DNA from: a virus
Direction: 5' to 3' (one strand)
Length of the DNA: 10,880 bases
Virus genome (UHGV): UHGV-0354908
Shown here: piece after piece, positions 2,772 through 4,244 of the stretch
Numbering within the stretch: the first letter of the stretch is position 1
Layout of the letters: each line of letters begins with the position of its first letter
Program-made: the position numbers and the translations under genes
The notes under the pieces: generated by a model
Databases searched by the model: none
What the model was told of the DNA's origin: nothing
Seen by the model: the letters and a program-made list of their open reading frames with translations, nothing else

Positions 2772-4244
2772 ATGATTTCAATTTTTAAAAAGCAACCGCG
2801 CACATTCTCTTTCATGTTTTTCTGTGCTTTGATTGCACTTTATGTGATGCCTATAATCTTAACGGGCAGGCTCTACATTGATGACTTGGGTCGGACTCTG
2901 TATGGATATTCCGGATGGGGGTTAAACGGCAGGCCGTTAAGTGATGCAATAATGCAGTCTATGAGCTTAGGCGGTGAACTGCTAGACTTGTCACCACTCA
3001 ATCAAATATTAAGTGTTTTGATACTTTGCATTGCCCTGTATTATTATGCTGCAAAATTTTTTGGCGAAATTAGCTTTATAGGATCGCTTGTTATATGCTT
3101 TCTGTTCATAGCAAATCCATTCTACATTGAGAACCTTTCATACAGATTTGACTCTTTAACAATGGCTTTGAGCATGGTGTTACTGCTAATTCCATACTCA
3201 GTTGCCAGCAGGCGATACATAAGCGACCTATTTTCTATTCTTATGATTATAGGATCTCTTTCTCTTTATCAGGCATCAATAGGTCTGTTTGCTATTCTGG
3301 CTTTGATTGAATCTATTACGGCTTCGAACAAAGGCAACAAACATATTGCTTCAATGATAGCAAGAAGGGTAATGCAGCTGTTTATAGCCTTCCTGATATA
3401 TAAGACATTTATATCTTCTTACTTCGTTAAGGATTACTATAACATAACTCACTCTGAAGTTATTAAGTTAAGCCATGAATCCTTATCGGTGCTTATTGAG
3501 AACATCAAAAGCTTCCTATGGTTTTTGAATAGCTATTTTCATAGCATGCCTGTCGCATTAAGGGTTTTAATCCCCTCAGCAATTGCATATTCAACAATTA
3601 AAATGGCTTATGAAATCTATAAGATAGGCTCAAAAGATAATGCTATAGCTCTTTTAATCCTGATATTATCACCCTTTTTAGTTCTGGTATTTTCAATAGC
3701 ACCTATGGCAATACTTAAAAGCCCAGTTTTTGCACCAAGGGTTCTTCTCTCTTTTTCTGGTGCAGCTATGTTTTATGCTTTCCTGATGCTGCGAAATATA
3801 AAAAGCCCTGTAATTTTGACTTTTATTTTCGCTCCGTTAGTTTGGATTAGCTTTGTTTACAGTTACTCTTTTTCCAATGCGTCCAAGAGCCAGTCCATAA
3901 CTGATGAGATAATAGCCACCTCCGTATTTCAGGAAACATCTCACCATGAATTTAGCCTCAAATACGTTACTGTTAATGGAGAAATGCCTAAGTCAAGGCA
4001 ATTGCTCATGGCGGAAAATAAACTACCGCTTATGTCAAAGCTCGTTCCTGTTTACTTGAGTTATGACTGGGTTTGGGGAGCGGAACTTCTAAATCACTAT
4101 GGAATGAATTTAGAGTTCAAAGTATTAGGAAGTGAAAAGAAAAATATGATATGTAAAAGCACCCTGATCACCAAGGGAAGCATTTACTCACTTTACTCAT
4201 TCAATGATATTCTGATCATTGATTTTCTAAGAACTAAGTGCTGA
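2772..4244 (+). CDS. Type-specific O-antigen glucosyltransferase (GtrC / Gtr(type) family), polytopic membrane protein
   Basis: Third position of the gtr cassette. 490 aa from the ATG at 2772 (MISIFKKQPRTF...), with a hydrophobic N-terminal segment and the YIDDLGRTLYGY motif typical of this family. An AAGGA sits 11 nt upstream. The track ORF start at 2682 would overlap gtrB by 83 nt and is rejected. The gene is strikingly AT-rich compared with its neighbours. Confidence 0.8.
   Translation: MISIFKKQPRTFSFMFFCALIALYVMPIILTGRLYIDDLGRTLYGYSGWGLNGRPLSDAIMQSMSLGGELLDLSPLNQILSVLILCIALYYYAAKFFGEISFIGSLVICFLFIANPFYIENLSYRFDSLTMALSMVLLLIPYSVASRRYISDLFSILMIIGSLSLYQASIGLFAILALIESITASNKGNKHIASMIARRVMQLFIAFLIYKTFISSYFVKDYYNITHSEVIKLSHESLSVLIENIKSFLWFLNSYFHSMPVALRVLIPSAIAYSTIKMAYEIYKIGSKDNAIALLILILSPFLVLVFSIAPMAILKSPVFAPRVLLSFSGAAMFYAFLMLRNIKSPVILTFIFAPLVWISFVYSYSFSNASKSQSITDEIIATSVFQETSHHEFSLKYVTVNGEMPKSRQLLMAENKLPLMSKLVPVYLSYDWVWGAELLNHYGMNLEFKVLGSEKKNMICKSTLITKGSIYSLYSFNDILIIDFLRTKC

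Follow-up and report, generated by a model that had tools for sequence, protein, structure and literature searches.

A gtrABC operon in a prophage at argW

The window analysed here, a stretch of 10,880 nucleotides from the viral genome UHGV-0354908, carries int, gtrA, gtrB, gtrC, a probable terminator and a convergent tfa gene, and the same gene order is found in SfI, SfV, SfIV and K-12 CPS-53. The features referred to below are:

176..1324, + strand: intS-type tyrosine integrase gene, argW-specific (Pfam Phage_integrase, 1e-39; GC 0.483)
1421..1460, + strand: conserved element GCAAGTATCGATCGATTGAGACTTAGATGATAGACTTCAT 5' of gtrA, nearly invariant in 7 gtr clusters and containing one GATC
1488..1850, + strand: gtrA, encoding a putative Und-P-glucose flippase of the E. 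coli/Shigella type (PF04138, 9e-15; phrog_2224, 1e-67; GC 0.430)
1847..2764, + strand: gtrB, encoding a bactoprenol glucosyltransferase (GT2) (PF00535, 1e-31; GC 0.450)
2749..4286, + strand: exchangeable cassette, with limits taken from comparison with strain 30EVA2
2772..4244, + strand: type-specific gtr gene, GtrC or Gtr(type), 490 amino acids, 36.8% GC
4248..4269, no strand assigned: G+C-rich hairpin TGCCCCGGC-TTAA-GCCGGGGTG at the point where gtrC and tfa converge, from a terminator scan
4274..4675, − strand: tail-fibre assembly (chaperone) gene tfa (PF02413, 1e-29; GC 0.463)
4675..5646, − strand: tail-fibre gene, with a step up to ~57% GC at ~4717

The gene at 2772–4244 encodes a GtrC-type, GT-C-fold glucosyltransferase and is the third gene of gtrABC in an SfV/SfI-like E. 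coli prophage at argW. A ribosome-binding site, AAGGA, lies 9 nt before the start of its open reading frame, and this start agrees with that of the RefSeq coding sequence WP_032419946.1. The product matched Pfam PF14264 (Glucos_trans_II) with a score of 103 bits (cutoff, 30 bits; E 2e-29; residues 33–330) and PHROG family phrog_4829, 'GtrC-like' (5e-94). The open reading frame, the RefSeq start and these two family matches bear out both the gtrC-type identity and the gene boundaries given in the initial annotation. We found that GtrC spans the inner membrane several times and has large periplasmic loops and a GT-C-type fold, of the type that uses a polyprenyl-phosphate sugar donor; its AF2 model has a pLDDT of 91.8. 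Residues 35–41 form a YxDDxxR motif in which Y35, D37, D38 and R41 are invariant in 23 homologues, down to 26% identity, and the conserved acidic residues of the first periplasmic loop mark a putative GT-C catalytic region. NCBIfam contains no model for GtrA, GtrC or tfa, and no RNA family passed its gathering threshold when the window was scanned against Rfam from end to end.

According to the established model, GtrB would load glucose on undecaprenyl phosphate in the cytoplasm, GtrA would flip the lipid-linked sugar to the periplasm, and GtrC would attach the glucose at a specific site of the O-antigen repeat. Glucosylation of the O-antigen would be expected to change the serotype and to block adsorption of phages that depend on the O-antigen. 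In the published description of these operons, gtrA and gtrB are conserved and interchangeable and the third gene is serotype specific (PMC3259042). The allele studied here probably adds glucose to the O-antigen and thereby converts the serotype, and its product is only 17–22% identical to the characterised GtrI, GtrII, GtrIV and GtrV.

The element at 1421–1460 sits in a putative operon control region. GATC sites near gtrA lie at 1323, 1353 and 1430, one of them inside the ATCGATCGAT palindrome of this 40-nt element; SfV lacks this one. In Dam/OxyR phase-variable gtr operons of the Salmonella P22 type, GATC sites are paired within OxyR half-sites 5' of gtrA. The hairpin at 4248–4269 is a probable bidirectional intrinsic terminator, and a rho-independent terminator is annotated at the equivalent place in SfV. 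Upstream, the 5' end of intS is broken by a junction at 175/176, leaving an intact open reading frame only from 338; from base 176 on, the gene is 99.9% identical to intS of the carrier strain E. coli MRSN346647.

Among the closest known parallels are the serotype-converting Sf phages of Shigella flexneri (SfI with gtrI, SfII with gtrII, SfIV with gtrIV and SfV with gtrV). Like the window, they carry int/att, gtrA, gtrB, gtr(type), a terminator and a convergent tail-fibre assembly gene. Their tail and baseplate module is 97–98% identical to the window's DNA, their GtrA and GtrB proteins are 84–85% and 75–76% identical to the window's, and their gtr(type) genes also have a low GC content (31.8–33.4%). 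They differ in the low identity of their type-specific proteins given above, in having the Sf int rather than an argW-specific IntS-type integrase, and in their host, which is S. flexneri rather than E. coli. The distal (C-terminal, 3') part of the tail-fibre gene, 4675–5344, is also absent from the Sf phages, and homology to SfI, SfV and SfII restarts at 5345. The K-12 element CPS-53 (intS-yfdG-yfdH-yfdI) occupies the same argW site by yfdC and shares the integrase family and operon layout; its int-gtrA region is 93% identical to the window, and yfdI is the positional equivalent of gtrC. However, YfdI is only 21% identical to GtrC and its gene has 27.6% GC, and CPS-53 is a decayed remnant, whereas the window belongs to a prophage with a full Mu-like tail module. 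PHROG places gtrA, gtrB and gtrC in its 'moron' category. As in phage morons, gtrC is cargo that is lower in GC than the phage genes around it, has its own terminator and is expected to be expressed from the prophage. Unlike morons, gtrC alone had no promoter of its own in our scan for promoter-like sites, and it is the distal gene of gtrABC.

Exchange and distribution of the gtrC cassette

The proposal that the type-specific gene is exchanged as a cassette held up, and such exchange of gtrC is strongly supported by two kinds of comparison. In a Megablast alignment with strain 30EVA2, homology stopped at 2748 and restarted at 4287 (98.4%), and the intervening DNA encoded a different GtrC of 494 amino acids with 39% amino-acid identity, set between flanks that were 98–100% identical. 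Delimited in this way, the cassette starts 16 nt before the end of gtrB, spans gtrC and the terminator hairpin, and reaches into the final codons of tfa. Among 5426 complete E. coli genomes, 8 carried the same gtrC allele at 99.5–100% identity. Its carriers represent at least three prophage contexts or loci (at argW/yfdC, beside dacD/sbmC and beside a third integrase), and their tail modules differ. Members of the GtrC protein cluster at ≥90% identity came from E. coli, Klebsiella and Citrobacter, and the identical protein was encoded on at least 493 contigs.

Comparison of the carriers revealed a further breakpoint inside gtrB, at ~2364. The block from there to ~4364 is at least 99% identical in all carriers, whereas the 5' part of gtrB is only 52–80% identical. 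On the other side, the 3' end of tfa (4287–4408) is 98% identical to that of 30EVA2 and 95–99% identical to those of other carriers, and it appears to be the right-hand homology anchor for cassette exchange. The exchanged unit is ~1.5 kb long and comprises gtrC and the terminator hairpin; we infer that it is swapped by homologous recombination in conserved flanks, which on the left would lie within gtrB or at its 3' end and on the right at the 3' end of tfa. One allele is accordingly met in different prophages, integration sites and genera, and one backbone carries different alleles.

The three Gtr proteins have diverged to very different extents. Compared with other E. coli and Shigella clusters, GtrA showed 84–91% amino-acid identity, GtrB 73–83% and GtrC 17–39%. 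The closest diverged GtrC proteins came instead from Pantoea clusters, with 63% amino-acid identity in Pantoea sp. YU22 and 73% in the P. brenneri / sp. PGP6 type. These clusters have gene spacing identical to that of the window, retain the hairpin 3' of gtrC (in both YU22 and the P. brenneri-type locus) and show the same GC gradient, although they belong to another genus with a chromosome of 55–60% GC. The YU22 locus also shares its flanks with the window, in the order yfdC-like gene, int, gtrA, gtrB, gtrC, hairpin and tfa. By sliding identity, gtrB is itself a mosaic: its 5' two-thirds (~1800–2400) are nearest to Pantoea-type gtrB, and its 3' third (2400–2748) matches other E. coli clusters with 100% identity. 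As a whole, GtrB is 90% identical to the P. brenneri-type protein, above its identity to the E. coli and Shigella types. GtrA shows the opposite relation, with its 84–91% identity to the Sf-phage and K-12 proteins compared with only 59–62% to those of Pantoea, a difference explained by the E. coli type of the window's gtrA. The operon is thus a mosaic of an E. coli gtrA and a Pantoea-like gtrB-gtrC.

The allele is an uncharacterised putative O-antigen modifier that circulates in prophages of E. coli, Klebsiella and Citrobacter, and in its carriers it could change serotype, phage susceptibility and recognition by vaccine-induced or other antibodies. Several of the carriers that we found are clinical isolates.

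Base composition and codon usage

The initial annotation had described gtrC as an AT-rich gene embedded between GC-rich phage genes, with GC-rich tail genes starting about 30 bp downstream. The AT-richness itself is confirmed. At 0.368 (GC3 0.383), the GC content of gtrC is significantly lower than that of gtrA and gtrB together (chi-square, P = 4e-5), tfa (P = 4.5e-4) and the tail genes (P = 4e-45), for which we measured 0.553 in the tail-fibre gene and 0.56–0.59 in the baseplate genes (GC3 ~0.62). The difference from gtrA/gtrB amounts to a modest 7.7 points. Within the AT-rich tract, which averages 36.8% GC over 1.5 kb and lies well under the host average, the lowest 300-bp window has 34.3% GC. 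The host genome has a GC content of ~50.6–50.9% (PMC2808357, PMC3851460). Chromosomal flank genes, with a GC of only 0.44, were dropped as the host baseline. Relative to the E. coli genome as a whole the deficit of gtrC is 14 points, and relative to the adjacent tail module it is 20 points.

The setting described for the gene is only partly right. The genes upstream of gtrC are themselves below the E. coli average, and the adjoining downstream gene is tfa, at 46% GC. Maximum-likelihood segmentation into three domains returned 1–2710 (46.3% GC), 2711–4717 (39.0%) and 4718–10880 (57.2%), and with these limits the low-GC domain takes in tfa. The large step therefore falls at the junction of tfa and the tail-fibre gene, at ~4717 and ~470 bp past the end of gtrC, not at 4244–4274, and it is approached as a ramp.

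Codon usage differed from that of some neighbours and not of others. In a within-amino-acid permutation test, GC3s of gtrC (0.351) was lower than that of gtrAB (0.440, P = 0.006) and of the tail genes (0.610, P < 0.0005), but was indistinguishable from that of tfa (0.398, P = 0.33). About 45% of the gap between gtrC and gtrA/gtrB stems not from synonymous choice but from the residues used by a polytopic membrane protein (FYMINK 37.6%). When recoded with the synonymous preferences of gtrAB, gtrC still had only 41.0% GC, and with those of the tail genes 45.9%.

Age and causes of the low GC content

The low GC content is a property of the gene class. In eight clusters, the GC content of gtr(type) ranged from 0.276 to 0.368 and was always below that of the gtrA and gtrB of the same cluster, with the window's gtrC the least AT-rich of the eight; 36.8% GC is thus the ordinary state of an enterobacterial gtr(type) gene. 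Low GC in gtr(type) genes was reportedly described by Allison and Verma in 2000, and with that description and the eight clusters measured here we regard it, like the cassette-like exchange of these genes, as a known condition. Within the open-access literature we found no statement of low GC in gtr(type) genes, and the SfIV genome paper covers another low-GC moron, not gtr.

It has been suggested that gtrC is a cargo gene acquired from a low-GC donor. Consistent with such an import, the deficit of gtrC relative to both the E. coli average and the tail module is large, and family members occur in Succiniclasticum, Megasphaera, Apibacter, Treponema and a cyanobacterial metagenome-assembled genome. 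However, homologues in low-GC hosts are only 24–33% identical, and the databases sampled contained no close homologue in a low-GC organism, all such matches being at or below 33% identity. The nearest diverged relatives, at 73%, 63% and 45% amino-acid identity, are instead Pantoea/Erwinia prophage genes. All relatives above 40% identity with a named organism (63%, 53% and 45%) belong to Pantoea or Erwinia, and the 73% relative was assigned there through named members of its 90% cluster. Where their DNA was examined, these relatives had the same low GC within genomes of 51–60% GC. At the syntenic Pantoea loci, GC was 0.43 in gtrA, 0.44 in gtrB and 0.35–0.40 in gtrC, next to YU22 chromosome of up to 0.595.

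Fourfold-degenerate sites provided a test of amelioration. Between the E. coli and Pantoea copies of gtrC, 56–62% of these sites differ (saturation, 70%), which corresponds to 80–88% of saturation. Yet GC4 is 0.28 in the E. coli copy and 0.27–0.30 in the Pantoea copies, or ~72% A+T in both lineages, with no drift towards the respective hosts. Because these sites are nearly saturated and GC4 has stayed constant, the AT-richness is an old, stationary trait of a phage-borne gene lineage. This argument presumes that the two copies, from E. coli and Pantoea, were carried by enterobacterial phages throughout their divergence; a low-GC reservoir hidden from the sampled databases and feeding both is possible. 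With equally AT-rich nearest relatives, near-saturated synonymous sites, constant GC4 and an anomaly common to every gtr(type) allele compared, the claim of a low-GC donor is not borne out, and a recent import whose composition survives as an un-ameliorated relic appears improbable. We consider it very likely that gtrC is a type-specific O-antigen glucosylation gene that moves as a cassette and that its low GC content has been long maintained rather than being the trace of a recent donor. A marked drop in GC within phage cargo is not enough to point to a recent low-GC donor; the deficit of gtrC is old, stable and common to all alleles of its class that were compared.

Several causes may underlie this trait. 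The low GC content might simply follow from the abundance of Phe, Ile, Tyr, Asn and Lys in a polytopic membrane protein and carry no evolutionary signal, and the FYMINK content of GtrC is indeed about twice the 18% of the baseplate proteins, with recoding recovering only part of the deficit. We regard this as highly improbable, since synonymous sites are shifted too, in both GC3s and GC4. In addition, GtrA is as hydrophobic as GtrC and has 35% FYMINK, yet its gene has 43% GC. Homologues of the same fold reach 60–70% GC in high-GC hosts. Those in Bordetella, Achromobacter and Rhodanobacter have 60–68% GC in keeping with their own flanks (r = 0.85 across 41 loci), a comparison that rules out a protein family forcing low GC. 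Amino-acid composition as the sole cause is thus refuted by GC3s and GC4, and it accounts for roughly half of the gap.

A different explanation is that AT-richness is actively selected through recruitment of H-NS (xenogeneic silencing), which would keep a costly membrane enzyme and spurious intragenic transcription low; only alleles rich in AT would then survive transfer between hosts. In E. coli and Salmonella, H-NS usually binds tracts in a GC range that includes 36.8% over 1.5 kb, and binding of AT-rich tracts was reportedly described by Navarre and by Lucchini in 2006 (cited in PMC7380047). In K-12, yfdI and the yfdI/tfaS spacer figure as H-NS-bound foreign DNA in every ChIP study compiled in PMC3661553, although yfdI is far more AT-rich than the window's gtrC (27.6% versus 36.8% GC). 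By analogy with yfdI, gtrC is a plausible H-NS target, and the stationarity of its AT-richness despite saturated synonymous divergence fits maintenance by selection. By contrast, the window's allele is the least AT-rich of those compared, and no promoter-island signature was detected, with 5 promoter-like sites in 1300–4800 compared with 8.5 ± 2.7 in shuffled sequences and no enrichment inside gtrC. The gene is also the distal one of an operon whose expression in lysogens is needed for serotype conversion, and in Salmonella gtr operons are documented to be controlled by Dam/OxyR phase variation rather than by H-NS (PMC7380047). Selection through H-NS recruitment is possible but on balance unlikely.

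The most likely cause of the long-maintained low GC content would be AT-biased mutation with little to offset it in an accessory gene that is weakly expressed and highly divergent. The residue bias of GtrC as a polytopic membrane protein would add to the AT-richness, and H-NS-type silencing possibly helps AT-rich alleles to survive transfer. We observed that one operon holds two equilibria at fourfold sites, ~50% GC in gtrB and ~28% in gtrC, across genera and at near-saturating divergence; at divergence equal to that of gtrC, GC4 of the adjacent gtrB is ~0.46–0.55. With considerable doubt, this contrast might be put down to recombination history, or else to selection for H-NS recruitment. In the former case, gtrA and gtrB would be kept GC-richer by GC-biased repair or selection during frequent homologous exchange, and the hyper-divergent type-specific alleles would never recombine internally and would therefore drift to an AT-rich mutational equilibrium. 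If recombination history is the explanation, gtr clusters and, by extension, wzx/wzy would offer a test bed for the base composition of accessory genes. The O-antigen genes wzx and wzy, whose products are polytopic and highly divergent, show the familiar pattern of anomalously low GC content.

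Layout and base composition of the prophage end

The window covers one end of a temperate E. coli prophage that resembles SfV/SfI and has a Mu-type baseplate and tail. The integration site is tRNA-Arg (argW) beside yfdC, which in K-12 is held by CPS-53, and positions 176-10660 are 99.95% identical to E. coli MRSN346647. The features are as follows:

up to 1324, intS
1488-1850, gtrA (PF04138)
1847-2764, gtrB (GT2)
2772-4244, GtrC-type gene, with exactly the coordinates of RefSeq CDS WP_032419946.1
4248-4269, G+C-rich hairpin
4274-4675, minus strand, tail-fibre assembly gene (tfa)
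4675-5646, minus strand, tail fibre
after the tail fibre, minus strand, Mu gp48/47/46/45/P/N-like baseplate genes

The initial annotation described gtrC as AT-rich and embedded between GC-rich genes, with GC-rich tail genes starting about 30 bp downstream. The AT-richness was borne out at 2772-4244. gtrC has a GC content of 0.368; the corresponding values are 0.430 (gtrA), 0.450 (gtrB), 0.483 (int), 0.463 (tfa), 0.553 (tail fibre) and 0.56-0.59 (baseplate genes). The difference is significant against gtrA and gtrB (chi-square, p=4e-5) and against the tail genes (p=4e-45). Synonymous third-position GC (GC3s), tested by within-amino-acid permutation, was 0.351 in gtrC versus 0.440 in gtrAB (p=0.006) and 0.610 in the tail genes (p<0.0005). 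Amino-acid composition made up approximately 45% of the GC gap to gtrA/B and 55% of that to the tail genes, and synonymous choice the remainder. The neighbours, however, had been misdescribed. The upstream genes have 43-48% GC, and the gene 30 bp downstream is tfa, with 46% GC and a GC3s that could not be distinguished from that of gtrC (p=0.33). Likelihood segmentation of the window placed boundaries at approximately 2710 and 4717; the low-GC domain therefore comprises both gtrC and tfa, and the main rise, to 57% GC, occurs where tfa meets the tail fibre.

Exchange of gtrC as a cassette

Low GC and exchangeability of the type-specific gene are established features of gtr clusters. Of 5426 complete E. 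coli genomes, 8 carry gtrC DNA at 99.5-100% identity, in varied settings: at argW/yfdC in MRSN346647 and MB30, beside dacD/sbmC in XDL, DLI.6n and 23CRST013, and adjoining another integrase in LR4. Tail modules and IS insertions also varied among carriers. One exact GtrC sequence was present on 493 contigs, and the protein cluster at 90% identity or more also holds sequences from Klebsiella pneumoniae, K. oxytoca, K. grimontii and Citrobacter. Among E. coli carriers, a block from approximately 2364 to 4364 is at least 99% identical, whereas identity drops to 52-80% over the first two-thirds (5′) of gtrB, which places one breakpoint inside that gene. Conversely, 30EVA2 and BY63 match the window at 98-100% in the 350 bp that precede gtrC (2400-2748) and at 98.4% across 4287-4408, but encode a different GtrC (39% amino acid identity) between these flanks. 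This places the swapped unit at 2749-4286, consisting of gtrC, the hairpin terminator and a few terminal codons of either neighbour. As judged from these alignments, the initial proposal that gtrC is an exchangeable cassette is shown to be correct.

From 5345 onward, the baseplate genes are 97-98% identical to those of phages SfI, SfII, SfIV and SfV. These phages do not share tfa or the distal, C-terminal (3′) part of the tail-fibre gene (4675-5344). The cassette that modifies O-antigen thus adjoins the receptor-binding module in a single contiguous variable region, 2749-5344.

IS elements are degrading the cluster in MB30, XDL and DLI.6n: an IS3 lies within gtrB in XDL, and IS5 (MB30, DLI.6n) or IS66 (XDL) lies in or beside tfa. 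In all three, gtrC itself is intact and 99.5-99.7% identical. At the left end of the window, bases 1-175 repeat the integrase-internal part 539-713 in inverted orientation, with 95% complementarity; this copy adjoins base 176 and truncates intS, whose intact reading frame begins only at 338. Because the copy is not 100% identical, its source is a second, diverged int allele. None of the 5426 complete E. coli genomes spans the 175/176 junction. Either a real inversion has occurred or two prophages have recombined, or the contig end is chimeric. At the right end, homology to MRSN346647 stops at 10660, and IS5-family (IS903-like) sequence follows, with 10660-10730 in one orientation and 10731-10880 in the other. 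Either an IS has inserted or the DNA has been rearranged upstream of the Mu N-like gene, or the junction, which no complete E. coli genome spans, is an assembly artefact.

Mosaic ancestry and the origin of low GC

Judged by its closest matches, the gtr operon is a mosaic. The regulatory region and gtrA are of E. coli/Shigella type (90-97%), and both gtrC and the 5′ portion of gtrB have their nearest matches in Pantoea clusters (approximately 80% nucleotide identity; GtrB, 90% amino acid identity). Across its 5′ two-thirds (1800-2400), gtrB shares only 55-81% identity with its other E. coli/Shigella counterparts but 79-89% with a Pantoea brenneri-type cluster; its 3′ third matches other E. coli clusters at 100%. 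The gene is thus itself recombinant rather than uniformly conserved.

The initial annotation attributed the composition of gtrC to a low-GC donor, which these comparisons do not support. Outside the cluster of the allele itself, the nearest relatives are found in Pantoea (73%, 63% and 53% identity), followed by Erwinia (45%), and no homologue from a genuinely low-GC host exceeds 33% identity. In Pantoea sp. YU22, the gene order (yfdC-like gene, int, gtrA, gtrB, gtrC, hairpin, tfa) and the spacings are the same and the hairpin is conserved, and all parts of the unit have diverged from the window to a comparable degree (identity: Int 58%, GtrA 62%, GtrB 81%, GtrC 63%, Tfa 69%). The GC gradient recurs there as well (0.433, 0.442 and 0.399 for gtrA, gtrB and gtrC), beside a chromosomal flank of 59.5% GC. 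The type-specific gene had 27.6-36.8% GC in all eight clusters compared, always below gtrA (43-46%) and gtrB (39.5-47.5%), and that of the window is the least AT-rich of the eight.

When E. coli and Pantoea gtrC are compared at conserved fourfold-degenerate codons, the third position differs in 56-62% of cases (saturation expectation, 70%), yet GC at fourfold sites (GC4) is 0.27-0.30 in all copies. Such near-saturation with steady GC4 indicates that AT-richness is a stationary property of the gtrC lineage in enterobacterial phages and not the fading imprint of a recent donor. The GC4 of gtrB is approximately 0.46-0.55 at equal divergence; that adjacent genes hold different compositional equilibria through long divergence is mildly non-obvious. 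Nor is low GC imposed by the protein itself: in a set of 41 full-length homologue loci, the GC of the gene follows that of its flank (r=0.85), and homologues in Bordetella, Achromobacter, Rhodanobacter and Dyella have 58-70% GC. Those in Enterobacterales and Acetobacter okinawensis lie 12-28 points under their flanks. In the A. okinawensis locus (L010, 6001-7398), a homologue with 35% identity has 28.8% GC, with gtrB at 46% and the flank at 57%, which is the same gradient, stronger still, beyond Enterobacterales.

Predicted function and regulation

The gtrC product (490 amino acids) matches PF14264 (Glucos_trans_II) and the PHROG 'GtrC-like'. Its AlphaFold model, built with 23 homologues, is confident (pLDDT 91.8, pTM 0.90), and the YxDDxxR motif (Y35, D37, D38, R41) is invariant among homologues down to 26% identity. 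With gtrA and gtrB upstream, the predicted product matches the published three-step model, in which Und-P-glucose is synthesised by GtrB and flipped by GtrA, after which Gtr(type) moves the glucose onto O-antigen in the periplasm (PMC3259042). GtrI, GtrII, GtrIV, GtrV and YfdI are only 17-22% identical to it, and this gtrC is an uncharacterised allele of the known gtr(type) class.

H-NS binding of gtrC, also raised initially, is plausible by analogy with K-12, in which two 'promoter islands', located in yfdI and in the spacer between yfdI and tfaS, are listed as foreign and as H-NS-bound in all ChIP studies compiled (PMC3661553). K-12 yfdI has 27.6% GC. A simple sigma-70 scan over 1300-4800 found no excess of promoter-like sites in gtrC (5 versus 8.5 expected). 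Control of Salmonella gtr operons is documented as Dam/OxyR phase variation (PMC7380047). Upstream of gtrA, gtr clusters of E. coli, K-12 and SfV type share a 40-nt element at 1421-1460, GCAAGTATCGATCGATTGAGACTTAGATGATAGACTTCAT, in nearly invariant form, although the spacer around it varies. The element contains one GATC in a 10-nt palindrome, ATCGATCGAT, and may be a Dam-sensitive regulatory site for control of the Dam/OxyR type.
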